A DNA stretch of 64,000 nt from Minisyncoccota bacterium (GTDB lineage Bacteria > Patescibacteriota > Minisyncoccia > Phycocordibacterales > XYD1-FULL-46-19). Positions 3,401 through 64,000 of the stretch are shown piece after piece; position 1 is the stretch's first letter, and every line of letters starts with the position of its first letter. The notes under the pieces are model-generated. The model made no database searches and was not told the origin of the DNA. It saw nothing but the letters and a program-made list of their open reading frames with translations. Both the position numbers and the translations under genes were made by a program. The stretch is from positions 42,726 to 106,725 of the forward strand of contig JBBABX010000002.1 in the NCBI GenBank assembly GCA_041657405.1. The letters run 5' to 3'.

Positions 3401-4879
3401 TTATTTATAAGCTGAATTAATTATAGCACTTTTTGAATACAAGATTCTTGTATCTGAAATATTTTTAAAACCAGTTTCTTTAAGTAGTTTTTTTTGTTCA
3501 TCAAAACTTAGCAATACTTTATCATTTTTTTTCTCTTCTTGTTTTATTAAATTATTATAATAAAACATTTTGATTATTGGAATAGAATACTTTATTGAAT
3601 CAGTAATAATTTTAATTAGACCTGACCTTTTTAGATCTTTTTTTATGTGTTCAATAAATATTCTATTTGGATTAAAGTTGTTATAAGGATTTGTTAAAAC
3701 TATTTTTCCTCCAGGTTTTAATACTCGATAAAACTCGCTAATAACCTTTGGTCTAAATTCATAAGGTATAGAATGTAATGTCAACATGCAAATTAACTTA
3801 TCGAACTCATTATCTGAAAACTTAAGATTAGTTAAATCGGATTTTATTAAGGTTGCTTCAGGGTCTTTTGATAAGTGAATTTTTAATGCGGTTTCAGAGT
3901 TATCTGCTCCGACCATTTCAATAGAATACTTTTCCTTAATACTTATTGATAGGATTCCAGTTCCTGAACCTGCATCTAAAATTCTATCGCCATTTTTTAT
4001 ATCTAGTTCCTTGATTACTTCTTCAGTCATTTCTTGATAAGGTATAGCCATTCCTATGACATCAAAGACTTTCATATAATTTGACCAAAAACTCTCATCC
4101 AAAGTATCTTTATTTGTAAAAGAGTAAATTATATCTTTATAAAAAGATACGAAAGAAAAAACAATGTAATACAGAAAGTTGTTTCTCCTCAACCATTTTT
4201 TAAACAAGTATTGTAATTGTGTAGGAGATTTTATCTTAATTTCATTTTGCCGCAAAAATTTAATATATAAATTAGCCACTTTTATTATTATCCCTGTCCC
4301 ATGTCGAGATTTTTTTTCCATTATGCTATCTATATCGCTGAGTTTTTCTGAATCATATATTATATGTTCAGGTTTTAGATTTTCTAACGCATCATTTTTA
4401 CCATCCCATACAACCAGTTCACTTTGTGGATTAAAATAACTTGTTTTCAAAGATAATTCTAAATCTAGGGAGGGATCACATTTGATCCATTTATTATTTA
4501 AAAAAACAAAACTGTATACATGGGATGACTTTTTGCTTATCTTCCTCTTGAGTATGGGGGGAACCACTGGCCCAAAGTATTCTTGTCCTTTTGTTTTTAA
4601 AACACCATAACCGGAGGGAATGTTTATGGATCTAAGCATTGTTACCAACAAATTTGTTTTATTGGTGCAAGTCCCCTCCTTTTCTTGGAGTGTTTCGCTT
4701 GCTTTTCTTTGCCACAAGCCAACTCGATACTCTATGTTGTCTCTAACCCAATTGAAAACAGCGATTGCCTTTTCTTGATCCGAAGAAAAGCCTTTTGTTA
4801 TCTCTTTTGCTTTTTCTGATATCTGAGGATTATTACAGTCACAAAACCTCGTTTCTTTTAAGTATTTTTCGAGTTCCAT
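3401..4879 (-). CDS. fusion protein: N-terminal transglutaminase-like cysteine protease domain plus C-terminal class I SAM-dependent methyltransferase
   Basis: The N-terminal half has a TGase-like Cys-His-Asp core (EGTCTNKTNLLVTMLRSINIPSGY ... HVYSFVFLNNKWIKCDPS). The C-terminal half has methyltransferase motif I (ILDAGSGTGILS) and the post-I/II region (VLKPGGKIVLTNP). Its stop codon sits 1 nt from the HK start. Confidence 0.7.
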   Translation of the reverse strand: MELEKYLKETRFCDCNNPQISEKAKEITKGFSSDQEKAIAVFNWVRDNIEYRVGLWQRKASETLQEKEGTCTNKTNLLVTMLRSINIPSGYGVLKTKGQEYFGPVVPPILKRKISKKSSHVYSFVFLNNKWIKCDPSLDLELSLKTSYFNPQSELVVWDGKNDALENLKPEHIIYDSEKLSDIDSIMEKKSRHGTGIIIKVANLYIKFLRQNEIKIKSPTQLQYLFKKWLRRNNFLYYIVFSFVSFYKDIIYSFTNKDTLDESFWSNYMKVFDVIGMAIPYQEMTEEVIKELDIKNGDRILDAGSGTGILSISIKEKYSIEMVGADNSETALKIHLSKDPEATLIKSDLTNLKFSDNEFDKLICMLTLHSIPYEFRPKVISEFYRVLKPGGKIVLTNPYNNFNPNRIFIEHIKKDLKRSGLIKIITDSIKYSIPIIKMFYYNNLIKQEEKKNDKVLLSFDEQKKLLKETGFKNISDTRILYSKSAIINSAYK

Positions 4880-4885
4880 CTTATT

Positions 4886-5542
4886 TTATATAACCCCAGA
4901 GATTTCTTTTATAAGTCCTTTTGCTATTTTATCTTTTCCTAAATACTCAACTATTTTTTTGTTGCTGTCTATTATATAAGCTCGGTGTTCTTTTTGTACA
5001 GTAGAGTATTCATTGGCGACAATCATGTCGGCCCTTGAGGCAATCATGCTTTTGTAAGCAATAGCAACCAGTTTGTTTTTTGGCAAACCGACTTCTAATT
5101 TAAATTTAACCAAAAATACGTTAGGTCTAATTTTTTTTATCAAATCAACAATTTTTGCCGTTGGTTTAAGTTTAATTGTTAAAGTTTTTTTCCCCGATTT
5201 AATTTTCCCCTCTTTTGAAGGGATTGGTGCGTAGTCTGCTACAGCGGATGAGTGTATAACTATTTCGTAATTTTTTGTCGAAAGCTCTTTTTTTACCAAG
5301 TTTAAGAGATCGTCGTAATATTTGTACTTAATAATTTCTAAATTTTTGGATTCTAGGGGTATTTTTGCTTTACCTGGTCCAAATAGCAAAGTTACTTTTG
5401 CTCCTTTTTTTGCGGCTTCACTGGCAATTAAAGCGCCAAGGGTTCCGCCAAAAACATTTGTTATGACCCTTACTTTGTCAATCGGTACCCAGGTTGGACC
5501 AGCTGTTATTAATATTCTTTTATTAGCAAGTTTTTTAGTCAT
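4886..5542 (-). CDS. coaB: phosphopantothenate--cysteine ligase (CoaB domain, stand-alone)
   Basis: N-terminal ILITAGPTWVPIDKVRVITNVFGGTLGALIA matches the DFP/CoaB signature. It overlaps coaC by 8 nt. Confidence 0.75.
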   Translation of the reverse strand: MTKKLANKRILITAGPTWVPIDKVRVITNVFGGTLGALIASEAAKKGAKVTLLFGPGKAKIPLESKNLEIIKYKYYDDLLNLVKKELSTKNYEIVIHSSAVADYAPIPSKEGKIKSGKKTLTIKLKPTAKIVDLIKKIRPNVFLVKFKLEVGLPKNKLVAIAYKSMIASRADMIVANEYSTVQKEHRAYIIDSNKKIVEYLGKDKIAKGLIKEISGVI

Positions 5543-32383: not shown

Positions 32384-32384
32384 G

Positions 32385-32456
32385 TGGACCATACCGGAAT
32401 CGAACCGGTCACCTCTCCCATGCCATGGGAGCGCTCTACCAAATGAGCTAATGGCC
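32385..32456 (-). tRNA. tRNA-Ala (anticodon GGC)
   Basis: I hand-folded the cloverleaf: acceptor GGGCCAT, D-arm GCTC/GAGC, anticodon stem CTCCC/GGGAG with loop AUGGCAU (the same loop as E. coli tRNA-Ala GGC), T-arm GGTTCGATTCC. A G3:U70 Ala identity pair is present. No encoded CCA. Confidence 0.9.
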
Positions 32457-32588
32457 CAAATTTCAAAAGTTGCCACTTATAAATATAACAAATCTTTATT
32501 AAATTGTAAAAGTGAGAAAAATTTAAAAATTATTTTTGATTTTATTTTAGCTGTATTCGTGCTATAATCATCCAATCATTTAATTTCA

Positions 32589-32665
32589 GGGCCCGTAGTT
32601 CAGTTGGCTAGAACGCCACATTTGCAATGTGGAGGTCACCGGTTCGAGCCCGGTCGGGTCCACCA
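32589..32665 (+). tRNA. tRNA-Ala (anticodon UGC), CCA encoded
   Basis: GGGCCCGTAGTTCAGTTGGCTAGAACGCCACATTTGCAATGTGGAGGTCACCGGTTCGAGCCCGGTCGGGTCCACCA; anticodon loop UUUGCAA; G3:U70 present. Confidence 0.9.
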
Positions 32666-50389: not shown

Positions 50390-51403
50390 TTATAAATCTA
50401 CCAAATTCTGAGGCTTCCCCGCCACAAAACCTGCGATATTGTCCATTGTTGTATCTAAAATTCGCGTTAAAGCTTCCCAGGTATTGAAAGCATTGTGCGG
50501 TGTTATTATAACATTGGGCATATCAATCAACATATGATTTTGCAAAACAGTCTTTAAATTATGTTGTTCTTCCAAATAACTGCTTAAAAATTCCATTTCA
50601 TCTTTGACAACTCCTTCCTCTTCTAAAACATCCAGACCAGCCCCAGCCAGGTGACCATTTTTAAGAGCTTTAAATAAAGCGTCAGTTTCTACCAACCCTC
50701 CTCGTGCCGTATTTATTAAATAGGCCCCCTTTTTCATTTTGGCGATTGATTCAACATTCAGGAGGTGGTGATTTTCAGATGTATAAGGAATATGAAGAGT
50801 CAAAATATCAGCTTTTGCCAAAACATCTTTAAAAGACAGATACTGATAGTTCATCTGCTTGGCATATTCTTCATTGGGAAATTTATCATAAGCAATAATA
50901 TTCATATTAAACCCTCTGGCAATTTCTATAACATTTCGTCCAATTCGACCAGTCCCGATTACTCCCAAGGTTTTATTTTTTAAATCAAAACCACGCAAGC
51001 CATCCAAACCAAAGCTACCAGTTTCTCTGATTCGGTCATAACTTTCATAAATCTTTCGCGAGAGAGCCAAAATCAAAGCAAAAGTATATTCAGCAACAGT
51101 ATCTTCTCCATAACTTGGCACATTAGCCACTTGAATATTCCTTTGGCGACACAAATCTAAATCGATATGGTCAAAACCAGTGGAACGAGTAACTAATAAT
51201 TTAAGATTAGGAAAATAATTTAAAGTTTCTACGTCTAGACGCGAATCAACAAAAATTGAGATTATGTCCGCATCATTTTCGACCGGTAAATGTTCGGCTA
51301 AAAGAGGGCCATCAATTATAATCTTATTTTCCAACGCTGAAAATTTTTTATTAATATATTCCTTCTGCCATTCCTCTAATTCAAAAAACAAAACTTTAGG
51401 CAT
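50390..51403 (-). CDS. D-isomer-specific 2-hydroxyacid dehydrogenase (D-lactate/phosphoglycerate dehydrogenase-like)
   Basis: NAD-binding GxGxxG (GVIGTGRIGRNV) and catalytic R/E/H-type motifs (…TARGGLVE…, ITPHNA). Confidence 0.85.
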   Translation of the reverse strand: MPKVLFFELEEWQKEYINKKFSALENKIIIDGPLLAEHLPVENDADIISIFVDSRLDVETLNYFPNLKLLVTRSTGFDHIDLDLCRQRNIQVANVPSYGEDTVAEYTFALILALSRKIYESYDRIRETGSFGLDGLRGFDLKNKTLGVIGTGRIGRNVIEIARGFNMNIIAYDKFPNEEYAKQMNYQYLSFKDVLAKADILTLHIPYTSENHHLLNVESIAKMKKGAYLINTARGGLVETDALFKALKNGHLAGAGLDVLEEEGVVKDEMEFLSSYLEEQHNLKTVLQNHMLIDMPNVIITPHNAFNTWEALTRILDTTMDNIAGFVAGKPQNLVDL

Positions 51404-51416
51404 AACTCAAAAAGAT

Positions 51417-53885
51417 TTAACTTTTAATTCCACCTTCAATCATTTTTTCTGCTTTATCAACCACTGAAAGCATTTTAATAATCACATCAGGGTTCAAAGA
51501 CATACTAGTGATACCGTTTTTGACTAAAAATTCAGCGAACTCTGGATAGTCAGATGGCGCCTGTCCGCATATCCCAACATATTTACCACGAGCGCGACAA
51601 CGTTCAATAACCGCGCTAATTAGATCTTTTACCGATGGATCATTTTCATTTCCAATATGTGTCAAAATACTAGAATCACGATCAAGACCTAATGTTAATT
51701 GAGTTAAATCATTAGAACCAATAGACATTCCGTCAAAGATATCTAAAAATTTATCAACCAAAATAACATTAGAAGGAACTTCACACATAACATAAATTTT
51801 TAGATCTTTGTCTTTTTCTCGGTCTAAACCATTCTCAGCCATAATATCAATTACAGCTTGTCCTTCTGCCAAGGTTCGACAAAATGGGACCATAGCTACA
51901 ACATTGGTTAAACCAAGCTCATTTCTAACTTTGGCTAAGGCTTCCACTTCTAACACAAAAGCATCTCTAAATTTAGGATCATAATAACGAGAAGCACCAC
52001 GCCAGCCAATCATTGGATTTTCTTCTTCTGGCTCGTAAAATTCTCCCCCAATCAAGGTCCGATATTCATTTGTCTTAAAATCAGAAAAACGAATAATCAC
52101 TTCATTTGGCCAGAAAGCAGCTCCAATTAGACTGATCCCTTCAGCTAATTCATTCACATAAAAATCTTTTTTGTTCTTACCGGAATACTCCTCAGTTAAA
52201 GCCTCAATCTCCTTTGCCACTTTTTGCGACGAACGATCTTTGGACCGCTTAATTTTTTCAAAATCAAGCAAAGCCTTTGGGTGAATTTTAATATAAGAAG
52301 TGATAATAAATTCCAATCGTCCCAAGCCAACACCAGCCACCGGCAAATAATAATTTTTCATAGCCTCTTCGGGAGAACCCACGTTTAAAACCACTTTGGT
52401 TTTAGGTGAAGGAATTTTATCTAATCGATGTTCAATTATTTTAAACGGTATCTCGTTTTTATAAACCAACCCATCTTTATCAGAAGAACAATCAACAGTA
52501 ACCATTTGGCTGTTCTTTAAAACTTTAGTCGCATTACCAGTTCCAACAATACAAGGCACCCCCAATTCACGAGAAACAATTGCCGCATGACTAGTCCGAC
52601 CACCTTTTTCGGTTATGATAGCTGAAGCAATTTTCATAATTGGCTCCCAATCTGGATCAGTAATTTCAGTAACTAAAATTTCTCCTGGTTTAAAAGAAGA
52701 CATCTCTTTGGTCTGCTTAATTATTCTTACTTTTCCAGTAGCAATTTTTGAACCAATGGCGATACCGCGCGTCAGCTCCATTCCTTTTTTTGATAATTTA
52801 TATTCGCGATAAAGATTGGGGTCAGCTTCAGCGTGAATTGTCTCAGGTCTTGCTTGGACTATAAACAATTCTTTGGTTTTACCATCTTTAGCCCATTCAA
52901 TATCCATTGGCTGATACCGATTGTGTTTCTTAGAAAAATACTTTTCAATTAAAGTTACCCAGGTTGCCAATTGAATAATTTCATCATCATCCAAACTAAA
53001 TTTGATTCGATCATTTTTTTTGACTTTCACTTTCGTGGTGCCAATTTTTCCATAAATCATTTTTTGGTCTTTTTCTCCCAACGTTTTGGACAAAATTGCT
53101 TTATAACCTTTTTCTAGGGTTGGTTTAAAAACCACAAATTCATCAGGTGTAATCTGCCCTTGGACTACCATCTCACCCAATCCATAAGCAGAATTGATTA
53201 CTACGACATTTTTAAAACCGGTTTCTGTATCAATTGAAAAGGCTACCCCGCTAGAACCGACATCACTACGAACCATTTTTTGTACCCCAACCGACAAAAG
53301 CACATCAAACATTGAAAAACCCTTATCTACTCGATAAGAAATCGCACGATTAGTAAAAAGTGAAGCAAAACATTTTTTTACAGCTTCTAAAAGGGCTTTT
53401 TCGCCCGAAATATTGAGATATGTTTCTTGTTGGCCAGCAAAAGAAGCTCCCGGCAAATCTTCTGCCGTGGCTGAAGAACGAACCGCTACGTCACAATTTT
53501 TGGTTTGATAAAATTCTTCCGACATTTGATGATAAGCCGCTAAAATTTCAGTTTCTAAATCTGCCGGTAAATTTTCCTTAAGAATCATTGATCGAATGTG
53601 AGCTCCTCTTTTTTGCAAATCAACCACATTATGAGTGTCCAATCCTTCTAAAGTTTCTTTGATTCTTTCTTTTAAATCAGTCTTTACCAAAAAATAATTA
53701 TAAGCATAAGCAGTAATGGCAAAACCATCCGGAACTTTTACTCCAAGAGGTGTTAGATTGTTAACCATCTCACCCAAGGCGGCATTTTTACCTCCCACCA
53801 GAGGCACATCAGTAATAGATAAATCTCTAAACCATAAGATATATTCCTTATCACGATTATCTTGAACTTTATTTTCCTTGGTCAT
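51417..53885 (-). CDS. ppsA: phosphoenolpyruvate synthase (pyruvate, water dikinase)
   Basis: It has an N-terminal ATP-grasp-like PEP-utilisers domain, a central phosphohistidine domain (GGRTSHAAIVSRELGVPCIVG) and a C-terminal PEP/pyruvate-binding TIM barrel. 822 aa. Confidence 0.9.
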   Translation of the reverse strand: MTKENKVQDNRDKEYILWFRDLSITDVPLVGGKNAALGEMVNNLTPLGVKVPDGFAITAYAYNYFLVKTDLKERIKETLEGLDTHNVVDLQKRGAHIRSMILKENLPADLETEILAAYHQMSEEFYQTKNCDVAVRSSATAEDLPGASFAGQQETYLNISGEKALLEAVKKCFASLFTNRAISYRVDKGFSMFDVLLSVGVQKMVRSDVGSSGVAFSIDTETGFKNVVVINSAYGLGEMVVQGQITPDEFVVFKPTLEKGYKAILSKTLGEKDQKMIYGKIGTTKVKVKKNDRIKFSLDDDEIIQLATWVTLIEKYFSKKHNRYQPMDIEWAKDGKTKELFIVQARPETIHAEADPNLYREYKLSKKGMELTRGIAIGSKIATGKVRIIKQTKEMSSFKPGEILVTEITDPDWEPIMKIASAIITEKGGRTSHAAIVSRELGVPCIVGTGNATKVLKNSQMVTVDCSSDKDGLVYKNEIPFKIIEHRLDKIPSPKTKVVLNVGSPEEAMKNYYLPVAGVGLGRLEFIITSYIKIHPKALLDFEKIKRSKDRSSQKVAKEIEALTEEYSGKNKKDFYVNELAEGISLIGAAFWPNEVIIRFSDFKTNEYRTLIGGEFYEPEEENPMIGWRGASRYYDPKFRDAFVLEVEALAKVRNELGLTNVVAMVPFCRTLAEGQAVIDIMAENGLDREKDKDLKIYVMCEVPSNVILVDKFLDIFDGMSIGSNDLTQLTLGLDRDSSILTHIGNENDPSVKDLISAVIERCRARGKYVGICGQAPSDYPEFAEFLVKNGITSMSLNPDVIIKMLSVVDKAEKMIEGGIKS

Positions 53886-54014
53886 AAAAAAATTAATACT
53901 AGTTAAACAACAAATAATTACTTTTTATTATAACTTATTCCAAGGCAAAAGTAACCCTTCCTTTTTAAAATTTGGGGGGATATTTGGTAAAATATCCAAA
54001 TTTTTTAGTTTTGA

Positions 54015-54881
54015 TTATTCCACCGTTAAGAATTTGACTAAATCTTCTTTAGCTTGCTCTACCGCTTTTTTGTATTTAACTTCAGCTTCAGCTACCTGGC
54101 GATCACGTTCTGAAATAATGACATTTTCAGCTTCAACTATATCTTTAAAAATTTTTTCCCGACCTTGACGTAGTTTAACTAAACGATTTTGCAAACTGTT
54201 TTCAGCCTGAATTCCGTCTCCAATTCCGCACATTTCAACTGCTTTTTGAATTTCTTCTCCTAATTTTTCCTCATAACTGATCAATCTGCTTTCCATTTCC
54301 GTCATTTTTTTGGATTTTAAATTATCTAAGTCTAAACGGTAATTCTTTACTGCCAAATCCGTCAAAAGACGGCGTTCTTCTAACGCGAGATTAACCTTTT
54401 TTTTGTATTGTTCAATTGCTTCTTTTTGCAAATCCGATTCAGCTATTTTATTCAAACGATCAAAATAAACTTTAAGATAATAGTCTTGACGCAATCTAAG
54501 CCAAGCACGTTGGTCGTCATATTTTTGTCTTTCTTCTTGGATTTTCTGATTTTGCACGCCAAGATTAGCGTTAATATTTTGTTGTCTTTCCAAATAACTT
54601 GTTTCTAGTTTTGTCACAGCTTCTTCAAGTTTCTGACAAAATTCTTCTGTTGTAAGTGGCGTTGTCGTTGTACTAGTAGCAATTGTTAAACTTGAAGAAG
54701 CCGTTGAAACAAAAAGGGTTGTGCTTGAGGCCGTTTCGTCCAAATTAGAGTTTGAAAACGGTAAAAAATTGGGCAGCGAAAAAGCTTCTGCCTCTTCTAT
54801 CGCCAAAACAGGTAAAACCAAAGCATTGGCTGACAACATAACTAAAACGAATATTAAAAGTTTTTTAAGGTAACAATTCAT
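54015..54881 (-). CDS. secreted coiled-coil protein with Thr-rich linker (hypothetical)
   Basis: A signal peptide (…LSANALVLPVLAI), a TSTTTTP tract and a long heptad-rich region. It overlaps the upstream putative anti-sigma gene by 17 nt. Confidence 0.4.
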   Translation of the reverse strand: MNCYLKKLLIFVLVMLSANALVLPVLAIEEAEAFSLPNFLPFSNSNLDETASSTTLFVSTASSSLTIATSTTTTPLTTEEFCQKLEEAVTKLETSYLERQQNINANLGVQNQKIQEERQKYDDQRAWLRLRQDYYLKVYFDRLNKIAESDLQKEAIEQYKKKVNLALEERRLLTDLAVKNYRLDLDNLKSKKMTEMESRLISYEEKLGEEIQKAVEMCGIGDGIQAENSLQNRLVKLRQGREKIFKDIVEAENVIISERDRQVAEAEVKYKKAVEQAKEDLVKFLTVE

Positions 54882-55278
54882 TTTCTAAATTATTTAAATC
54901 AAACAAAAAATCGTTAACTTCAATTTCTGCCGCTAGGGCGTCTTCAGCAGCTAAAATTTCCAACTCTCCAACAAAACCTGACTCAATTACCTTGTCTACC
55001 TCGCGAATAATTTGAGCATGAAGAGTTTGGCTGTTGGCAAAAGGATCCCCGCTTGTGCCAAAATCTCGTCCAAATATTCCCAAGACCAAAATTGCCATAG
55101 TCATTATGGAAAAAGATATAAAACTTCGTCTTTTGATCAAATCAACAAAAAAAGAATAGGGTGATAAAATTGGTTCATTTAATTCTTTTAAGATTTGCCA
55201 TAAAAAATCCTGACGTGGTCTTGATTTTTCACGTAAAATAAAAAATAATTTATTTAATTTTTTGTCTTCATTCTCCAT
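54865..55278 (-). CDS. putative membrane anti-sigma factor
   Basis: 137 aa with one central TM helix (FISFSIMTMAILVLGIFG), located 5 nt downstream of the ECF sigma gene. Assignment is by position only; there is no zinc anti-sigma motif. Confidence 0.35.
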   Translation of the reverse strand: MENEDKKLNKLFFILREKSRPRQDFLWQILKELNEPILSPYSFFVDLIKRRSFISFSIMTMAILVLGIFGRDFGTSGDPFANSQTLHAQIIREVDKVIESGFVGELEILAAEDALAAEIEVNDFLFDLNNLENELLP

Positions 55279-55283
55279 GTAAA

Positions 55284-55850
55284 TTATAATAATCCTTTAT
55301 CTTTAAAAAAACTCTTAAGTGTCTGGATGGAACGTGAACTAATTTGTCTAACCGCTGCTTCATTTTTGTCTATAATTTCAGCAATATCTCTATACGAAAG
55401 ACCTTCTATATAATGCATCACTAGAATCTGACGATCTGGCTCTTTCATCTTTGTGATTGCTTGCCTAGCCAAATGAGCCAATTCCATTTCTTCGGCTTCT
55501 TCTGCTGGATTTAGGGCTTGATCAATAAACTCAATTTGCCAATCATCTGGATCGTTATCTAACATTGGCAAACTTTTCTTTTTGCGAAAAAAGTCAATGA
55601 CTATATTGTTCGCGATTCGATAAAGCCACGAACTAAAAGGTTTATCCCTAAAATGAAAACCGTCCAATGATTTAAGAGCTTTCAAAAAAACCATTTGAGT
55701 CAAATCTTCGGCCTCTTCTCGGTTACCGACTTTAAAAAAAATAAAGCGATAAATTGGTGTAAAATATTGTTCATAAACCTTAGCAAAAGCATGACTATCG
55801 CCATTTTTTGCCTTGTTTATTAAGCCTTTGATTTTTTCCTCTTCTTTCAT
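55284..55850 (-). CDS. ECF-type RNA polymerase sigma factor (sigma-70 regions 2 and 4)
   Basis: Region 2 (…YEQYFTPIYRFIFFKVGNREEAEDLTQMVFLKALKSL…) and region 4 HTH (LSYRDIAEIIDKNEAAVRQISSRSIQTLK). Confidence 0.85.
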   Translation of the reverse strand: MKEEEKIKGLINKAKNGDSHAFAKVYEQYFTPIYRFIFFKVGNREEAEDLTQMVFLKALKSLDGFHFRDKPFSSWLYRIANNIVIDFFRKKKSLPMLDNDPDDWQIEFIDQALNPAEEAEEMELAHLARQAITKMKEPDRQILVMHYIEGLSYRDIAEIIDKNEAAVRQISSRSIQTLKSFFKDKGLL

Positions 55851-55917
55851 AAATAACGTTTAAAACGCCCTATTGTGACACTTAAACAGCCAAGATGGCA
55901 AGAAAATAAAGATTAAA

Positions 55918-56649
55918 TTATCTCAGATAAAAAGTAGCCTTAACTGTGACCATGACTTCCTTATTGATATTTGATGTATCATAAGCTCCATAATCAGAAA
56001 TTTCAATAGAGTTCTCCGATAAAACCTGGACCACTCCACTAGAGGCAGCTTTTAAACCTCCTATTTTTTTATTCCCCGCCTTGGCTATCTCGCTAGCTCG
56101 CGCTTTAGCATCAGCAATAGCCGCCGAGAGAAGAGAGACACGCAATTCTGGTAATTTGGAATAAAAATATTGAAGAGATTGAGTAGAAAAAATAACTCCT
56201 GCCGTTATTAATTCTCCGCTATTATTGGCAATACTTGAAATATTTTCCACTTCATTTGAGTTGATTTCTATCGTTCGACGCAAAATATAACGTTTAGCAT
56301 CGCCACGATTATCGGGATCCCAAACTTCTTCCATAAAAACTGGAGAGATGGTTAAATCTTTTTCAGCAAAACCTTTATCTAAATAAAATTTCTTGACTAA
56401 ATCTAAATCACGATCCATCTGTTCATAACCAAACTTCATATTACCAAGCTCAACCACCCGATTGAAAGTAGCAATCCATTTAACAGTATCGGCTATGACA
56501 GCCTGTTTGGCTGAACCAGTCACTACCAACGCATTATCAAAGGACCGAACTCGGTAAAAAGTGTAGGCACCTATTAAGGTGCTGACAATCAAACTGCCAC
56601 TTAAAACAAAGCTAATCAATGTCGCCGAATTTTTAAAATTGTTATCCAT
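55918..56649 (-). CDS. SIMPL/DUF541-family protein (YggE-like), N-terminally membrane-anchored
   Basis: An N-terminal TM helix. The length and the C-terminal ...LLSAAIADAKARASEIAKAGNKKIGGL... region resemble SIMPL-domain proteins. Confidence 0.5.
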   Translation of the reverse strand: MDNNFKNSATLISFVLSGSLIVSTLIGAYTFYRVRSFDNALVVTGSAKQAVIADTVKWIATFNRVVELGNMKFGYEQMDRDLDLVKKFYLDKGFAEKDLTISPVFMEEVWDPDNRGDAKRYILRRTIEINSNEVENISSIANNSGELITAGVIFSTQSLQYFYSKLPELRVSLLSAAIADAKARASEIAKAGNKKIGGLKAASSGVVQVLSENSIEISDYGAYDTSNINKEVMVTVKATFYLR

Positions 56650-56851
56650 AATAAAATAATATTAAAAAATAATTGTTATCTTTTCCCGTTATCATTTCTT
56701 CTAATTTTGAGTGAATCCTTTTTCAGTCTATATCTATCATTTTTTTGACATTGTCTAATTTTAAATGTTGACGGAGATCGATAAGCTGGAGATCCGCTTT
56801 TATTTCCTACTTTGGCATAATTTTTCATAATTCATTTTTATTATTTTAACG

Positions 56852-57613
56852 TTATTTTTGAATTATCGCAAAACGATAACGACCAAATTGGTCTTTGCCA
56901 AAGAGCCAAGATTTATATTTATTTTTTTTTAAAAATTTATCAACTGCTTTTTTTTGTCCATAGCCAAATTCCAGATAAATTTTCCCATTAATTTTCAAAT
57001 AGGCTGGCGCTTGTTTCAAAAATTTTTTAAGATAAAAAAAACCGTCTCGACCGCCGTATAAAGCTTCCCGGGGCTCATATTTTGTCACCGAACTAGCTAA
57101 TTTTTGAGCAAGTGGAATATATGGAGGGTTAGCAAAAATATAATCAAAAGTTCCTCTAACATTAGAAAAAACGTTACTTCTTACGATCTTGGCTCGATTA
57201 GGCCCAACTTTATCACGATTCAGTTTGAGATTTTTTTTAAGAGTTTTGAGTGCTTGCAAATTTTTGTCAGCAAAAATCACTTTAGCTTGATTGACATTAA
57301 TTAAAACAGCTAAACCAATACAACCAGATCCCGCAAAAATATCCAAACATTTTATTGTTTGACGTTTGTTTTCTTTTTTTATCTCAGTTATTGCTTTTTC
57401 CGTCCAATATTCAGTTTCTTCGCGTGGAATAAGTGGTCGTTCAGTCAAATCAATTTTGCAACCCAAAAACGATTTCCAACCAATGACATAGTCAATGGGT
57501 TCACCTTGTCGCAAACGAGACAAATCTTTGGCCAAATTAGTTGACGCAATTTGATTACCAGAGTATTTATCTTGTCTTAACCAATTTAAATATTTCTCTT
57601 CTTTTTTCATCAC
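56852..57613 (-). CDS. prmC: release factor glutamine N5-methyltransferase PrmC/HemK
   Basis: HemK N-terminal region (EPIDYVIGWKSFLGCKIDLTERPLIPREETE), motif I LDIFAGSGCIGLAV and the NPPY motif (IFANPPYIP). Confidence 0.8.
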   Translation of the reverse strand: MMKKEEKYLNWLRQDKYSGNQIASTNLAKDLSRLRQGEPIDYVIGWKSFLGCKIDLTERPLIPREETEYWTEKAITEIKKENKRQTIKCLDIFAGSGCIGLAVLINVNQAKVIFADKNLQALKTLKKNLKLNRDKVGPNRAKIVRSNVFSNVRGTFDYIFANPPYIPLAQKLASSVTKYEPREALYGGRDGFFYLKKFLKQAPAYLKINGKIYLEFGYGQKKAVDKFLKKNKYKSWLFGKDQFGRYRFAIIQK

Positions 57614-58332
57614 GGCTTTGGATCAAGTCGCATATACTTTTGCCAATGATCATACAAATCTCTGGTGGCAATCAAATCTCCTACGTTATAACGAGCAATA
57701 TCTAAGTATTTTTTCTCACGAAAAAGTCTGGTAACATCATCACCACAAACACCATCGCCTTTAGGACTTTTTATTCCTAAAGCACGACACCACAAATGCA
57801 AAGAATTTTTGCCACGAACAGCTCCATAAAAAGATAACTGGTCAAAAAGATCCACGTGTTTGGCATCATAACGTTGACTGTTAAGATAACGATTGGACAT
57901 CAAATCTTTCGTTATTTTTACCTTGTTAACCGCCGAACGAGCAATCAAAAAGGGAACATCAAATGATCGCCCATTAAAATCAATGAACTCGTCATATTCC
58001 TTAGCTCCGTGCCAAAAACGCTCTAACATTTCTTTCTCAGACATTGGTTTAAATTTAAAATCATTTTCTTCTGATTCTTTTTCTTCACTGTCAGGTGCTT
58101 GATAGTAAACAACCCCCTTGTTTTTATCATAATCTAATAAACCAATCGCCACAATTTGCCCAGTTAGAGGAGAAAAGCCTAAGCCGTCTTTTATTTTCCC
58201 AAGTTCACGATCATATTCTTCTTGATTCTCGCAACTTTCTTTTATCCATTTGGTCAAAATTTCGCAAGTCGTTTCATCCATTTCATCATAATTTTCACCA
58301 GCTGTTTCTATGTCAAAAATTAACTTTGCCAT
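57610..58332 (-). CDS. RNase H-fold predicted 3'-5' exonuclease (PolB-exonuclease-like; COG3298-type); the ORF extends to 58386
   Basis: Exo I-like LIFDIETAG at the proposed start, and conserved downstream Y/D-containing blocks (…RYNVGDLIATRDLYDHW). It overlaps prmC by 4 nt. Confidence 0.5.
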   Translation of the reverse strand: MAKLIFDIETAGENYDEMDETTCEILTKWIKESCENQEEYDRELGKIKDGLGFSPLTGQIVAIGLLDYDKNKGVVYYQAPDSEEKESEENDFKFKPMSEKEMLERFWHGAKEYDEFIDFNGRSFDVPFLIARSAVNKVKITKDLMSNRYLNSQRYDAKHVDLFDQLSFYGAVRGKNSLHLWCRALGIKSPKGDGVCGDDVTRLFREKKYLDIARYNVGDLIATRDLYDHWQKYMRLDPKP

Positions 58333-58489
58333 TTTTTTCTTTTTAGATAATAACTTTATTTTAACATAATAAAACAAAGGCTTCAATTTTGCGTATCTAA
58401 TTTAACAACTGAAAAATAGGAACAAATTTTAGATTTAAATTATAATTTTTGTTATAATAACAAAAACATTATTAATAACACGTAAAATT

Positions 58490-59128
58490 ATGGAACAAAA
58501 ACATAGCTTTTGGGCAATCGCCGCCGGTTTAGTAATTCTTGTTTTGGTAATTTACGGAGTAAGCCAAAATAATTTATCAAGTCCTAACGATAATTTAAAT
58601 ATGTCACCAATTATTAAATTAGAAACCAATTTGGGTGAAATTCAATTTAAAACTTATCCCAATGATGCTCCCAAAACTGTTGAAAATTTTGTAAAATTAG
58701 CAAACGAGGGTTTTTATGACGGTCTCACTTTTCATCGAGTTATCAATGGTTTTATGATTCAAGGTGGCGACCCTAATTGTTCCCCCGAATTATCTAAGCA
58801 ACCAACTACTGGTCCTTGTGGCACTGGCGGCCCAGGTTACCAATTTGAAGACGAATTAAATTCTGATACCCAATCTTACCAAGACGGTTATCAAAAAGGA
58901 GTTGTCGCTATGGCTAATGCTGGCCCCAATACCAATGGTAGTCAATTTTTTATTATGCTAGCTGACACTCCTCTCCCAAATGACTACACAATTTTCGGCA
59001 AAGTTATCAAAGGTCAAGAGATTGTTGACCAAATCGGACAAGTGACAATTGACATTAATGACCGCCCAATTAAACCAATAAAAATAATCAAAGCAACAAC
59101 TTTGATCATTAACGAATCTGATATTTGA
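58490..59128 (+). CDS. ppiB: cyclophilin-type peptidyl-prolyl cis-trans isomerase with N-terminal membrane anchor
   Basis: FHRVINGFMIQGGDP and GPNTNGSQFFI cyclophilin motifs; N-terminal TM AIAAGLVILVLVIYGV. Confidence 0.9.
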   Translation: MEQKHSFWAIAAGLVILVLVIYGVSQNNLSSPNDNLNMSPIIKLETNLGEIQFKTYPNDAPKTVENFVKLANEGFYDGLTFHRVINGFMIQGGDPNCSPELSKQPTTGPCGTGGPGYQFEDELNSDTQSYQDGYQKGVVAMANAGPNTNGSQFFIMLADTPLPNDYTIFGKVIKGQEIVDQIGQVTIDINDRPIKPIKIIKATTLIINESDI

Positions 59129-59202
59129 GTTTTAAATAACAGAAAAATATTAATGATTAAAAAACTTTCTTAGTATTTGAATTAATAAGAATTATTTTAA
59201 AT

Positions 59203-59502
59203 TCACTTAACTTCTTTAGTTTTTTGGGGATCAGGAATCAAACCATTCCTAATGCAAGCCGGACAATAATTGCCACTGCCACCACAAATCGGGCATCTAT
59301 CTCTTAACTCATCTTCTGGAGTTCTACTTTGAATATAATCCTTAGCAAGTTTTGAGATTTTGTCATCTTCTCTAGTCTCTTCAAATTTAGTATCTAAGTC
59401 TAAATCTTGGCCTCTTTCTTCAATTTCAGGCAAATCCATTTGTTCGCCAGATTGATATTCTTTTTTATTTTTCATAATTTTACAATAATTAAAATTAAAC
59501 AA
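59203..59502 (-). CDS. small acidic protein with C-terminal zinc ribbon (hypothetical)
   Basis: CPICGGSGNYCPACIRNG at the C-terminus. The likely start is the internal ATG (MKNKKEY). Confidence 0.35.
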   Translation of the reverse strand: MFNFNYCKIMKNKKEYQSGEQMDLPEIEERGQDLDLDTKFEETREDDKISKLAKDYIQSRTPEDELRDRCPICGGSGNYCPACIRNGLIPDPQKTKEVK

Positions 59503-59539
59503 ATATCAGCTAAAAACCGCGAGTTGCTTCGTTTCTGTT

Positions 59540-60481
59540 TTAAGCTTCTGTTTCTATCGCAAAATTGACAAGAACTTTATTTCCTTGGAGGAGGCCGTCA
59601 ATTCTTACTCTTTTACCAATTTCCCAATCATTACAAACAATCGGACCATCTATCGCCTGGCAACGACTGCTGGGAACAAACTGAAGCATCACCCGAAGAG
59701 CTGGTTGTCCAGGTTTTTCATAAACCAGAGACCACCCATCGGCTCCTTCATCTTTTACCAAGTTGCCAATCTCAGAAAAAACAATCTCTTCTTCTGGCAA
59801 AATTTCAAAAGATTTAATTTTGACACTTTTGTTTTCATCTATCAGATAACTAAATTCAGCACGAAATAGAATATGACCATCTTCATATTCAACCAAACCA
59901 TTTTTATTTTCGCTAAAAGTAATATTGTTTACTTGAAAAGCTCCGCCCAAAACTGGTTCTTCGGGCGACAATTCAGCAATATATTCTCTAATATAATTAT
60001 CAACTTTTTTCTGTTCATCCACCTCAAAAGAAACCCCTGGATTACCACAGGAAATATCGTCTATCTTCCACTTCCCATTAATTTTGATTAAGGATATTTG
60101 GATTATCTTAATAACCCCAGAAAAATCCTCTCGCACTTCAACTTGAACCCCTTTGTCATTACTGCCAACTTCATAAATTAAAAATTTTTCCGGCTTATTC
60201 TGAGCACACAACACTGGATCATAATTGTTTTGGTCATAAACAGTTATTGCCTCTTTTATTTTTCTTTTTAAATTATCTGTTAAGGTGTCACTCTTTTGAT
60301 AAGAATTATCATCAAGACGATATTCACCATCAAGCCAATTCTCATAAAATTTCTTTGTGGTAACAACTGGGTCGCTGAAAAAGTAATAATCATAAACTAA
60401 CCACCCAGCCACAATTAACAAGAGAAATATTAATGAATAAGTTAATTTTTTCATAATAGAAAGTGTTAAAATATTTAACAT
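59540..60481 (-). CDS. hypothetical membrane-anchored protein
   Basis: N-terminal TM (LTYSLIFLLLIVAGWLVY) followed by a ~280-aa soluble domain. No motif recognised. Confidence 0.4.
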   Translation of the reverse strand: MLNILTLSIMKKLTYSLIFLLLIVAGWLVYDYYFFSDPVVTTKKFYENWLDGEYRLDDNSYQKSDTLTDNLKRKIKEAITVYDQNNYDPVLCAQNKPEKFLIYEVGSNDKGVQVEVREDFSGVIKIIQISLIKINGKWKIDDISCGNPGVSFEVDEQKKVDNYIREYIAELSPEEPVLGGAFQVNNITFSENKNGLVEYEDGHILFRAEFSYLIDENKSVKIKSFEILPEEEIVFSEIGNLVKDEGADGWSLVYEKPGQPALRVMLQFVPSSRCQAIDGPIVCNDWEIGKRVRIDGLLQGNKVLVNFAIETEA

Positions 60482-60534
60482 AAATATTTTAACACTCCTT
60501 TCCTGATTTGCAATTTAAACTTTTTTAATCCGAC

Positions 60535-60948
60535 TTAAATTGCAAATAGAATTGCGCCACTAGTTATCAATAAAGCTCCCAATCCAGTTTTCCAAGTCAA
60601 AGTCTCACCCAAAAATAAAATTGCCAAGATTAAAATAAAAACAACACTCAAACGGTCTAGTGCCGCCGCCCCAGACGCTGGACCAATTTTTAAAGCTGCA
60701 AAATAAAAAAGCCAAGATAATGCTCCAACCAAACCAGACAAAATGATAAAAATAAAAGATTTGCCATCAATTTTACCCAAATCAAATTTACCAAAACTAA
60801 TAGCAAAAATTAAAAGCGCGCAAGCCATAACAATCGCACGGATAGTCGTGGCCAAGGTAGTATCAACCCCTCCCAATCCGAGTTTGCCCAAAATTGCCAC
60901 CAAAGCAGCAAAAAAGGCAGACAATAAAGCTAGGATTATCCAAGACAT
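60535..60948 (-). CDS. small EamA/DMT-superfamily membrane transporter (4-TM half-size)
   Basis: 137 aa with four hydrophobic helices. The N-terminus MSWIILALLSAFFAALVAILGKLG is an EamA-like signature. Confidence 0.55.
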   Translation of the reverse strand: MSWIILALLSAFFAALVAILGKLGLGGVDTTLATTIRAIVMACALLIFAISFGKFDLGKIDGKSFIFIILSGLVGALSWLFYFAALKIGPASGAAALDRLSVVFILILAILFLGETLTWKTGLGALLITSGAILFAI

Positions 60949-61120
60949 AGAAACATTATAAATCTTAAATATTTTTTATGAAAGCAAATTCTGGGGAGAA
61001 ACCTATTTTTAATTTTTATAATAAAGAATTTTCGAATTTTCTAATTTGACTTAATCATTAAAATTTGTTCCACTTAAAATAGTTCTTTTCCAATAAAACT
61101 AACCCTTAGGAGAAATAGTA

Positions 61121-61594
61121 ATGACCACAAAAATCAACCGGACAAAAGACAAGGCCTATCCAATGGTAAATGAGATTTTTGAATTAACCATTGACGGCAA
61201 CATCCCAGAAAATACCCCAGAAGGAATGATCAAGAATTGTAAATATTGTGGTTTTGAACTTGAAAAGTGGAGTCATGAGGGACCGACCATAACCGGCAAA
61301 AAAACTAAAAAGTTTAAACTCACCCAAATTGGCCAGCAACACGATTGGACGACAACCAAAACACTTTTAAGAAACAAGAACGGTCCCACCCCCGAAGGTC
61401 AGTGGTTAAAAGCTTTCAAAGAGGCATACCCAAAATCAGATTATAAGGGACCAATCGTGGTTGCCGATGCTTCGTGGATTGGTCTTTTAGACGGGAAATA
61501 TTTCCCCTATCTATCTGAAGGAGGGTTGCTAGTGTTTAGCTGGGTCGGAGCCAGTTTTGGCGACCGTTGGCGCTGGTTAGTATTTGCTCTTTAA
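61121..61594 (+). CDS. hypothetical protein (good RBS AGGAG 8 nt upstream)
   Basis: 157 aa with a C-x2-C (CKYCGF) and an aromatic-rich C-terminus. No motif recognised. Confidence 0.4.
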   Translation: MTTKINRTKDKAYPMVNEIFELTIDGNIPENTPEGMIKNCKYCGFELEKWSHEGPTITGKKTKKFKLTQIGQQHDWTTTKTLLRNKNGPTPEGQWLKAFKEAYPKSDYKGPIVVADASWIGLLDGKYFPYLSEGGLLVFSWVGASFGDRWRWLVFAL

Positions 61595-61636
61595 AAGTCA
61601 GGGGTTAAGAGCCAGATTCTTAAATTTCTGATTTTT

Positions 61637-61668
61637 ACTCTGTTGTTAACTTAACAACAGAGTTTTTG
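61637..61668 (+). terminator. intrinsic terminator (perfect 13-bp inverted repeat plus T-tract)
   Basis: ACTCTGTTGTTAA-C-TTAACAACAGAGT followed by TTTTTG. Confidence 0.55.
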
Positions 61669-61827
61669 TTTCAATCAATCAACAATTAAAGCAACCGAGT
61701 GCCATTTTTTTCTTAATCTTCCAAAAATTCGCCCGAATTTGGGGGAATTAAGAAAAATTTCCCTCATTCCCAAACTTTTTTAATATTTTGAACCAATTTA
61801 AAGCTCTTTTCATAATAAAACTTACTA

Positions 61828-62013
61828 TTAATTAGACAAAAACTTTCTTATTCTCTCCTTTTTGGGTTTATAAAAATACCCCTTACTCTTCCATTTAGCA
61901 ATCTCTTTCTTGGCACTTTCCTCGGTGTTGCATTCATACAAAACACAAAAACCATTGACAAATAACCCTATTTCTGATATTATATTCGGGACTGCTCTTT
62001 GAGATAAGAACAC
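61828..62013 (-). CDS. small hypothetical protein
   Basis: 61-aa ORF with AT-rich, host-like composition. No motif recognised. Confidence 0.25.
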   Translation of the reverse strand: MFLSQRAVPNIISEIGLFVNGFCVLYECNTEESAKKEIAKWKSKGYFYKPKKERIRKFLSN

Positions 62014-62135
62014 TGCAAAACGATGTTTGAGATGAGCTTTTTGAGCTTCAAAGTCAGGGGCCTAGAAAGCTCGTCTCAAACTGAGGCAAGTCGTTCCGAG
62101 CGATCTCGGTAAATCAGAAAATGGAGATGATGTCG

Positions 62136-62927
62136 ATGAAAACATTGAACACGTCTGCACTGGTAACCGCAGACAGTCCGAAAGGACAGAGAGCTACCGA
62201 AACGTTCCGCGCCCAATATAACAAGGCGGGACTTGACGACGAAAGCGCACAGATCCTGAACGAGAATCCCGGCTTCGCCGTGTATCTCGCCGATGGTATC
62301 CGTCGCTTCTCAGCCAAAGCGCCCGACTACGGTCTGGCGCAGTCAATCCTCGGCATGGATTTCATCACGCCCGAGGAAGTCAGCAGGGCTCGCCCGAGCA
62401 TTGTGTACACCGACGACCAGATCACGGCACTCGCCGAAAGTCTGCCGTCGGAAGACATGCTCAAGTGGTGCAAGGACAACGGTTACGCCGTCATGCCCGC
62501 TCCGCCGCAGGCGTGCTCACTGCTCGACATTCGGGAGATCCTGTCCGCCCACTTCTGCTCGAAGACGGGTGGGTAGTATTCCTACCAGAAGTTCGCTCGC
62601 GAAGACAGGACGTCCTTCGGATGGCTCGCCATCAAGAAGACTCCGATCTCCGACTCGACCAGCAAAAACTGGAACGAGCAGAACAAGCTTCTGTCCACAC
62701 TCGAGACGGTGCCGAACGCCGCCGAGATGAGCTGGTTCATCACGACCTATTTCGAGGTCCGTGGTATCCGACTCTTCGAAAGCATCTACGTTCGGACGTC
62801 CAATCTCGACTCGGACGGTGACCGTGTTAGCGTCGGCGGCTTCGATTCCAAGGGTCTCTTAGTCAATAACTGGGGCGGCGGCCACCGCCAGGGCGACCTC
62901 GGCTTATCGGGTGTCAGGAAGCAGTGA
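62136..62927 (+). CDS. hypothetical protein in a high-GC segment, interrupted by a single in-frame TAG at 62574-62576 (frame open from 62121)
   Basis: GGAG lies 8 nt upstream of the ATG at 62136. ORFs 62121-62576 and 62709-62927 are in the same frame, and the 44 codons between them are stop-free and protein-like. The other two forward frames give Arg/Ser/Pro-rich nonsense typical of off-frame GC-rich DNA. Confidence 0.4.
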
Positions 62928-62965
62928 TCCTTGATCCCTTGAGGGCTTGTTCCTCTTGAATACTT

Positions 62966-63008
62966 GAGCCTTCGCGAAATTTTTTTTCGCGAAGGCTCTT
63001 TCTTTTTA
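62966..63008 (+). terminator. strong intrinsic terminator (14-bp perfect stem)
   Basis: GAGCCTTCGCGAAA-TTTTT-TTTCGCGAAGGCTC followed by TTTCTTTTT. Confidence 0.6.
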
Positions 63009-63024
63009 TACACAAACAAAAAAC

Positions 63025-63046
63025 CACCCGAAAGGGTGATTTTTTG
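63025..63046 (+). terminator. second, weaker hairpin plus T-tract
   Basis: CACCC-GAAA-GGGTG followed by ATTTTTTG. Confidence 0.4.
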
Positions 63047-63319
63047 TTCTGGTTACTGCTCTCAGTAGGTATGTAATGTGCGGAATAGTTACCTTTGATT
63101 TCTATCGAAACTTGAGGAGTCTAGGACACCCTTTTGGAAGGTTCGTGCCCATGACTCGTTCTTAAAATGCTTTGCAAATTATAGCGATTTTAAGAGTCTC
63201 GATAGATCTCACATGGCTGCTGCCGCAAAAGGATTCGAACCGTCTCGGTCTAGAACCAAAATTATCTTAGTATACGGCTTGTTTATTGCTCTTTTTTGCG
63301 GTATAAATGATTTACTTAT

Positions 63320-63659
63320 GCAGCAGCACCAAATGAAACTGGCAACAGAGCCATACAACAACATCGCCACGGGAAAGAAAGTGATCGAATCCCGTCTTTT
63401 TGATGAGAAGCGCCAGCAGATTGCGATTGGCGACCAGATTGTTTTCAGTGAAAATGATAATCCAGAAAATAGTGTAACTACTACAGTGAAAGGATTGTTG
63501 CGCTACCAAACCTTCAAAGAACTTTTTGCTGACCATGATCCAGCACTTTTCGGAGAAAAGAGCCGTGATTTTCTCCTGACACAGATAAAACAATTCTATC
63601 CTGACGAAGACGAGCAGAAATACGGCGTTGTCGGCATTCGCCTAGAACTACTTGGCTAA
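63320..63659 (+). CDS. ASCH (PUA-like) domain protein; the ORF is open from 63213 but its 5' part overlaps a tRNA-like fragment
   Basis: EPYNNIATGKKVIESRLFDEKRQQIAIGDQIVF...YGVVGIRLE matches the ASCH-domain pattern (short beta-barrel with conserved GxK(T/V)xExR). Confidence 0.55.
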
Positions 63660-63786
63660 CTGCTATCTTATATTGTAATGTTCGTACCGTACCCAACATG
63701 GGTACGTCAACCTTTTTGTTGCTCAAGGAGCTATAGTGGCTTCCCTGCAACAAATCAAAGAAAGGAGTTCCTTACAATGATACGAG

Positions 63787-64000
63787 TACGAAGAGTTCGG
63801 CTCGATGATTTACCTGTCGTAGCGGAAATGATGCACCAGCATCTTGACCCGTTCTACGGCGGAGACCATCGGGCGCACGCAAAGCGCATCGTCGAAACTG
63901 CCTCCAGAGGCAACAAAGACAAGAAGGGTCACTTTTCGGCTGAACAGCTGATGTATGTAGCCACCGAGGACAACCACATCGTGGGTATCCTTAACTTCGT
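63787..64000 (+). CDS. partial CDS (5' end only; runs off the window), possibly GNAT-like
   Basis: A strong RBS AAAGGAG lies 9 nt upstream. The N-terminus MIRVRRVRLDDLPVVAEM resembles GNAT acetyltransferase N-termini, but this is weak. Confidence 0.35.

Follow-up and report, generated by a model that had tools for sequence, protein, structure and literature searches.

We propose that the guanine-plus-cytosine-rich (GC-rich) spike near the right-hand end of the 64,000-nucleotide (nt) stretch analysed here (the window, from contig JBBABX010000002.1 of a Minisyncoccota bacterium) is very probably a horizontally acquired, stand-alone target gene of a Patescibacteria diversity-generating retroelement (DGR), which has been orphaned from its retroelement and recently inactivated, and which has a second acquired islet beside it. 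In a DGR, a reverse transcriptase (RT) and the Avd protein copy the RNA of a template repeat (TR) into cDNA with misincorporation opposite adenines, and this cDNA is substituted for the variable region (VR), which is located at the 3' end of the target gene, so that the ligand-binding face of a C-type lectin domain is rewritten. Only the recipient half of such a system would remain in the window, namely a promoter, a structured 5' untranslated region (UTR), an open reading frame (ORF) with an adenine footprint in its VR, a hairpin following the VR and a terminator. A single TGG-to-TAG transition would recently have inactivated the gene, and the copy is most likely a fossil in which diversification has ended. 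We regard the gene as orphaned and recently inactivated because no RT, Avd or TR was found in approximately 81 kb and because a tryptophan codon now reads TAG. Both a DGR target gene and a tRNA-associated islet are known kinds of element; the composition switch that an original prediction had flagged at this site is genuine DNA, explained by known biology.

The GC-rich gene and its family

Searches with the product of the GC-rich gene recovered 283 homologues, labelled Patescibacteria by the sources that name an organism; the 120 listed are 57-90% identical to it and mostly 260-270 amino acids (aa) long. Pfam and PHROG had no match for the protein, and a profile search of PDB sequences with the family returned nothing below E = 0.25. 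The gene neighborhoods of the relatives supply an identity. In two loci, L001 and L003, genes for a 116-aa bAvd protein (PF22296) and a 349-aa reverse transcriptase (RVT_1) come after the homologue, with PHROG matches to "Avd protein of DGR" (E = 9e-18) and to reverse transcriptase (E = 2e-114). Across 53 species-level Patescibacteria loci (L010-L062), surveyed over 6 kb around the gene, RT and Avd were found in 23, with a TR also detected in 22 of these; one further locus has Avd and TR at a contig end, and the remaining 29 have none of the three, most of their target genes being intact. The 11 cognate TR/VR pairs differ by 10-17 mismatches at adenines as against 0-3 at other bases; the L001 pair, for instance, differs at 17 of 31 TR adenines and at 1 of 87 other bases. 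Every pair shares one constant non-adenine difference at the 3' edge, where the VR reads CAGGAAG and the TR CAGGCAG. Based on the Avd, RT and TR neighbors and the adenine-only TR/VR mismatches in the relatives, we conclude that the family comprises DGR target genes. A widespread Patescibacteria "hypothetical protein" family for which there is no Pfam model can hence be labelled as DGR variable proteins.

The copy in the window appears to bear a similar footprint: its VR differs from the nearest heterologous TR, that of L001, at 15 of 32 adenines and at 6 of 87 other positions (Fisher p = 2.7e-6). The 3' end of this VR (about 62898-62921) is the counterpart of the invariant segment resembling the initiation of mutagenic homing (IMH) element. 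Judged from its sequence, this copy has an inverted repeat following the IMH-like end. An inverted repeat following the IMH has been described in the DGRs of Bordetella and Legionella (PMC5758913), and the conserved hairpin at 62941-62955, the loop of which tolerates large insertions in L003, L017, L028 and L037, is a candidate for its equivalent. The C-terminus of the target protein is modelled as a C-type lectin fold, with the VR at the extreme C-terminus, while for its N-terminal helical domain (about residues 20-120) no relative was found. The spacing to the GGAG motif suggests that the ATG at 62136 is the likely true start of the gene.

Horizontal acquisition, one of the origins that had been considered for this DNA, is borne out by comparison with other genomes. 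The block at 61948-63021 is 93.0% identical at the DNA level over 1075 bp to the L001 locus, from another Patescibacteria genome, in which the flanks are unrelated (blastn). In most other loci the similarity runs from about 62024-62028 to about 63007-63022, so that the boundary originally placed at 62030 coincides with the start of a widely conserved unit. Nucleotide identities of 80-93% between genomes with unrelated flanks point to horizontal spread within Patescibacteria. A more specific suggestion, that of a prophage remnant, finds loose support in the methylase, terminase-like and serine-recombinase genes beside the retroelement in two relatives, the terminase-like gene being a faint match; a scan of IMG/VR for relatives recovered none.

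Some metagenome-assembled genomes contain two or three copies of the target gene (L026 with L032; L056, L057 and L061). In L017, the RT appears to be split into two overlapping ORFs, 3946-4608 and 4460-5047 (L017 3946-5047, minus strand), of which tblastn covers a part only; this may represent a frameshifted RT, in which case the DGR would be decaying while retaining Avd, TR and target.

The state of this copy and competing explanations

The in-frame TAG noticed in the original prediction stands, and it occupies a position at which the homologues have a near-invariant tryptophan. All three assemblies that span the site have this TAG, and no intact reading frame was recovered for this copy. The VR begins 76 codons downstream of the stop; its sequence is identical in the three assemblies. 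Deviations at conserved columns number four, all conservative and without any excess, and the nonsense mutation therefore looks recent.

The search for the missing half of the system extended beyond the window by means of a JGI locus, L004, which reproduces window positions 51121-64000 exactly and continues to window coordinate 71594. Over the window and this extension (71.6 kb), tblastn with four family RTs gave a best match of only E = 0.36, tblastn with two family Avd proteins gave none, and blastn detected neither a TR nor a second copy of the VR. Likewise, there was no RVT match by Pfam in the 10 kb that adjoin the window on its left (covered by locus L068) and no RVT_1 among the called genes of L004, and JGI metagenomes scanned for the end of a cognate TR yielded the VR itself only. 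We infer that this copy was diversified in the past and that its RT has been lost rather than being remote.

Several observations weigh against this interpretation. The approximately 81 kb covers only part of a genome of probably 0.6-1 Mb, and a distant DGR is possible, remote DGR targets having been documented (PMC5758913). Besides the TAG, the copy looks intact, and its flanking cis elements are all preserved. In 29 of the 53 loci, too, the 6 kb around the gene contain neither RT nor Avd nor TR, yet the gene is mostly intact, so that stand-alone copies may serve a function in their own right. The adenine bias of the window VR is measured against TRs of other genomes, and it leaves six differences at non-adenine positions. 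The target gene is convergent with the neighboring tRNA-Gln gene here, as opposed to co-directional in L013, L017 and L028. Finally, at the left end of the block (61948) we found no second repeat or junction scar.

It is conceivable, if on the whole unlikely, that the GC-rich unit of about 1 kb is itself a horizontally mobile Patescibacteria cassette, which functions or is diversified in trans without a linked RT. Behind this idea are the frequency with which the unit stands alone, its sharing as a discrete block (the similarity of stand-alone copies to the DGR-linked loci is confined to about 1.0-1.2 kb) and its common proximity to tRNA genes, a tRNA or tmRNA gene lying within 6 kb in 10 of the 18 loci checked. 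If it were true, the hairpin of the 5' UTR described below would be a new cis-regulatory RNA motif specific to the target family. That about half of the species-level copies have no RT nearby also bears on how frequently DGR targets are orphaned or serviced in trans.

We consider it improbable that the gene is a remote target still being serviced by an RT, Avd and TR that lie at another genomic site or belong to a co-resident element, the TAG being a transient or minor variant. The stop ahead of the VR in three assemblies, the constancy of the VR across those samples, the empty searches of approximately 81 kb and the metagenome scan without a cognate TR end all speak against such servicing, even though non-adjacent and remote targets are known (PMC5758913; PMC8144416), the VR 3' end, the post-VR hairpin and the terminator are intact and conserved, degenerative changes are few, and the many loci lacking a nearby RT are mostly intact. 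Orphaning followed by a recent nonsense mutation remains the interpretation that we favor.

There is very little likelihood that the TAG is read through or recoded and that a full-length protein is made. The rest of the ORF is undamaged, and stop-codon recoding does occur in some Patescibacteria lineages, where it affects UGA, not UAG; against this, TAG terminates 4 of 53 host ORFs (TAA 42, TGA 7), the homologues use TGG at this position, one transition away, and a non-exhaustive search of the window showed neither Pyl-type machinery nor a recoding signal.

Composition, junctions and RNA elements of the acquired block

The abrupt rise in GC content is real, but it takes the form of a spike of about 0.9 kb followed by only moderately raised values rather than a switch sustained over the last 2 kb. 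Every 1-kb bin up to 62000 has 27-42% GC, as against 55.4% for the bin 62001-63000; in 200-nt bins the values are 51-61% across 62100-62999, with 55-61% reached only at 62100-62950, 38-45% at 62900-63799 and about 50-53% only from 63700 on. Beyond the window the content stays at 49-54% through a GNAT-ASCH fusion gene and then returns to 33-38%, in agreement with the expectation that the anomalous segment would continue past the window end. The whole anomalous region thus extends over about 3.4 kb (61948-65356) with 43-58% GC, compared to 34-36% in its flanks, and is made up not of a large island but of two small segments acquired at a tRNA-Gln hotspot. The codon usage agrees with the earlier description: third-position GC of the target ORF is 0.76 versus a host mean of 0.30 (range 0.21-0.43; 53 host ORFs), and all three forward frames are open, with off-frame ORFs rich in arginine, proline and serine at 62293-62730 and 62465-62821.

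This composition is a trait of the target-gene family, which has 54-64% GC in nearly every locus with flanks of 31-53%, including in hosts of 31-36% GC; in L015, L024 and L060, for example, the gene has 58%, 58% and 60% GC and its flank 33%, 34% and 34%. The jump in the window would accordingly be that of a GC-rich family gene that has not drifted toward its 35%-GC host, and a spike of this kind is usable as a marker of the family in AT-rich genomes of the candidate phyla radiation (CPR).

An artificial join of an AT-rich and a GC-rich organism, the other origin that had been raised, has next to no probability. The GC change at about 62.0-62.1 kb is certainly sudden, and two Logan contigs (L006 and L009) both stop at window position 62172. 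However, L004 is joined by five assemblies of other samples (JGI 3300014204, ENA ERZ27247346, three Logan SRA runs), and because these six assemblies of six samples, produced by differing pipelines, are 100% identical across the left boundary (61948-62172), a chimeric join is excluded there. The switch is thus reproduced in independent assemblies. Three of them (L004, L005 and L007) cover the whole GC-rich block with its TAG and run through it back into AT-rich host DNA; past the tRNA-Gln gene the contig is again at 33-38% GC and carries housekeeping genes for a RuvB-like protein, Dus, a methyltransferase and a D-Ala-D-Ala carboxypeptidase. Homologue searches with the GC-rich ORFs, as had been suggested, place both genes closest to Patescibacteria, the phylum of the host. 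The recovered contigs all represent the same strain, L004 and L005 differing by one 5-nt indel in 10.9 kb. As for the two contigs that share an end base, they break in the most conserved 5' part of the target gene, probably since near-identical copies in co-occurring organisms tangle the assembly graph; the gene is thus one that breaks assemblies.

Equally negligible is the notion that the stretch is a large structured non-coding RNA with an incidental ORF. In its favor are the frequent coincidence of structured RNAs with GC spikes in AT-rich genomes, the openness of all three forward frames and the conserved RNA hairpins of the flanking UTRs; against it, the ORF length is conserved among the listed homologues, the product models as a recognisable fold, and mismatches to 20 relatives fall at codon positions 1, 2 and 3 in the numbers 396, 297 and 834, a third-position excess which indicates that the region is protein-coding. 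Rfam 15 is no more favorable to it: only tRNAs in the window reach the gathering threshold, a relaxed search at 62017-62091 gave only sub-threshold miRNA-like hairpins at chance level (E about 1-2), and neither setting assigned the leader, the 3' hairpins or the att-like repeat to a family.

The features of the two acquired segments are collected below.

Table. Features of the acquired block and of the adjoining islet, in window coordinates
Feature	Position	Strand	Basis or remark
Acquired block (promoter, 5' UTR, DGR target gene, 3' hairpins)	61948..63021	+	blastn match to L001 7814-8886
Candidate sigma-70-like promoter, TTGACA-17-TATTAT, TG before -10	61955..61983	+	consensus scan 11/12
Main 5'-UTR hairpin	62025..62081	+	24 pairs: 19, one-base bulge each side, 5
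Second 5'-UTR hairpin, CCGAG-CGAT-CTCGG	62096..62109	+	just upstream of ribosome-binding site GGAG (62123-62126)
DGR target (variable protein) gene, 268 codons, TAG-interrupted	62121..62927	+	homology, context, fold
Premature stop TAG for near-invariant TGG (Trp)	62574..62576	+	in all three covering assemblies (L004, L005, L007)
Variable region (VR)	62803..62921	+	gap-free alignment to TRs of 11 relatives
Post-VR hairpin, GAGGG-CTTGT-TCCTC	62941..62955	+	14 nt past stop codon; conserved across loci
Intrinsic terminator of target gene, 14-pair stem and T-run	62966..63008 (hairpin 62966-62998)	+	terminator scan
Second terminator-like hairpin, CACCC-GAAA-GGGTG, flanking A-run and T-run	63025..63048	.	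just outside conserved block
Distal att-like direct repeat with diverged tRNA-Gln 3' end and about 81 nt of tRNA-downstream sequence	63138..63241	-	
ASCH gene	63333..63659	+	Pfam PF04266 (E = 2.8e-9), PHROG 19935
GNAT-ASCH fusion gene, 441 aa, 5' part in window	63777..64000, end at 65102	+	Pfam Acetyltransf_1 and ASCH

The stretch at 61955-61983, which is conserved with L001, L010, L013 and L017, may function as the promoter. Downstream of it, the imperfect inverted repeat of 16 bp that had been taken to mark the boundary is real and indeed longer than originally stated, but it is a conserved RNA hairpin inside the block and not its terminus. Folding of the window sequence gives the main hairpin a minimum-free-energy z-score of -4.6. 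Its consensus helix in 25 loci (alignment A2) has 22 pairs, ten of which show compensatory changes, with 97% of cells paired. In a two-helix test, 12 pairs had changed on both sides, compared with 4.9 +/- 1.5 in shuffles (0/500), and slid controls scored far lower than the structure of the main hairpin. As G-U pairs occur on the plus strand only, the structure is one that forms in RNA. Stabilisation of the mRNA and a regulator-binding site are possibilities for its role. Well supported by covariation and absent from Rfam, this hairpin is a lead worth keeping. The second hairpin of the 5' UTR has weaker support than the first, with 90% of cells paired and both-side changes in two of its five pairs. 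An alternative, riboswitch-like helix between the 3' arm of the leader hairpin and a downstream GAGGCAAG was rejected, because 86% of cells were compatible with it but there were no both-side changes and one position was never paired.

At the 3' end of the block, the strong terminators of the original prediction are present as a hairpin with a T-run at 62966-62998 and a second hairpin at 63025-63038. The first shows compensatory variants among the loci (GAGCCTTCGCG/CGCGAAGGCTC, GAGCCTCCGCG/CGCGGAGGCTC and GAGCCCTCGCG/CGCGAGGGCTC), and the second has no counterpart in the relatives. The 10-mer AAGTCAGGGG does occur at both 61595-61604 and 62051-62060, but its sharing does not exceed chance when all 10-mers are counted as candidates: at least one shared 10-mer arises in 43% of shuffles of two adjacent 1-kb segments, and we reject it as a boundary repeat.

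Two ORFs at the left flank deserve mention. A reverse ORF of 61 aa (61828-62013, minus strand), without a Pfam match, straddles the left junction at 61948 and could represent the leftover 3' part of a gene that the insertion cut short, or else be spurious. Between the host EamA gene and the block lies a moderately GC-enriched (about 39-46%) ORF of 157 aa (61121-61594, plus strand), for which a search of 5.8 billion proteins yielded only 3-4 distant homologues; it may be further foreign cargo. The possibility that it is a paralogue of the GC-rich gene, raised by similar C-terminal motifs, was rejected as BLASTP gave no significant match.

The islet at tRNA-Gln and comparison with known systems

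The 2.1-kb segment with the ASCH and GNAT-ASCH genes makes up a second islet of acquired DNA, with a 104-bp direct repeat on either side. The copy of the repeat at 63138-63241 is 92.3% identical to L004 14133-14236 (window coordinates 65253-65356), and the latter overlaps the 3' end of an intact tRNA-Gln(ttg) gene (L004 14214-14285, or 65334-65405, minus strand) situated 1.3 kb past the window end. The tRNA-like T-arm fragment noticed earlier in the window is thereby accounted for, given that the direct repeat carries a diverged tRNA-Gln 3' end. These repeats bracket the ASCH/GNAT-ASCH islet only, not the DGR-target block. The islet would have arisen through site-specific integration at the tRNA gene and now be without an integrase, a mechanism to which the repeats point. 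Inspection of the sequence beyond 64 kb, which the original prediction had recommended, thus yielded the matching direct repeat but not an integrase up to 71.6 kb; Pfam matched no integrase, recombinase or transposase among the genes from 51.1 to 71.6 kb or the window ORFs examined, the absence of an integrase or transposase from the window being in line with what had been reported.

The ASCH domain of the first gene was likewise correctly recognised; the longest ORF starts at 63213, but the homologues are 112-113 aa long. The GNAT-ASCH gene has about 53% GC and 563 homologues, which are from Patescibacteria wherever the source names them. The two genes form a conserved Patescibacteria module, also found in L064 and L065; that of L064 is 78% identical to it at the DNA level, and here the module has 43-53% GC versus 34-36% in the host. 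Together with the att-like repeats at tRNA-Gln, this identifies the segment as acquired DNA in its own right.

The element of about 85-100 nt directly downstream of tRNA-Gln(ttg), which the two direct repeats of this genome contain, recurs three times in L017 (3820-3899, 8181-8273 and 10152-10246), from another Patescibacteria species, with 81-86% identity between species, and its copies there separate the DGR cassette, a NUDIX-fusion gene and a PcfJ-like gene at tRNA-Gln. In both species the copies set apart cargo of one or two genes, and no integrase lies close by. This repeat, found in two species, could mark an undescribed cassette array, either integron-like or made of tandem att sites; such a repeat-delimited array of tiny cargo islets at tRNA-Gln in two CPR species is a further lead worth keeping. 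We also observed an ASCH-like gene and a NUDIX gene at L068 7663-9326, just to the left of window position 99; ASCH and NUDIX genes are recurrent small cargo in these Patescibacteria loci (also in L017 and L064). The only tRNA genes of the window itself are two divergent tRNA-Ala genes (ggc, minus; tgc, plus), 130 nt apart, at 32384-32665.

The region resembles tRNA-associated islands in abutting tRNA-Gln(ttg) with a 104-bp direct repeat that includes the tRNA 3' end, and in a composition deviating from that of the host. It differs from them in that there is no integrase in or near the islet, the repeat continues past the tRNA for about 81 nt, each islet is tiny and holds one or two genes, and the DGR-target block has no recognisable repeat at its left end. 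When set beside the solved DGR variable proteins, the target protein stands apart by sequence: it shares only 9-15% identity with TvpA (2y3c), Mtd (1yu0) and TaqVP (5vf4), and no PDB chain matches it at the sequence level.

The closest comparison is with the DGRs of Patescibacteria/CPR (clade 2, PMC8144416; the "CPR set" of Wu et al. 2018, PMC5758913). Roux et al. 2021 (PMC8144416) describe a DGR clade confined to Patescibacteria and report that VR regions systematically adopt C-type lectin folds; in CPR DGRs the usual arrangement is a single target gene, the function of which is unknown (PMC5758913). The present locus departs from these in holding the target gene only, with RT, Avd and TR not found in approximately 81 kb, in the premature stop of that gene, in a target family without a Pfam model and in a covarying 5'-UTR hairpin of which we found no description and no Rfam family. 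It agrees with them in that its homologues adjoin Avd, RT and TR, in the adenine-specific TR/VR mismatches at the loci of those homologues, in the placement of the VR at the extreme C-terminus of a modelled C-type lectin fold, and in an IMH-like VR end that is one base off the TR and is followed by an inverted repeat.

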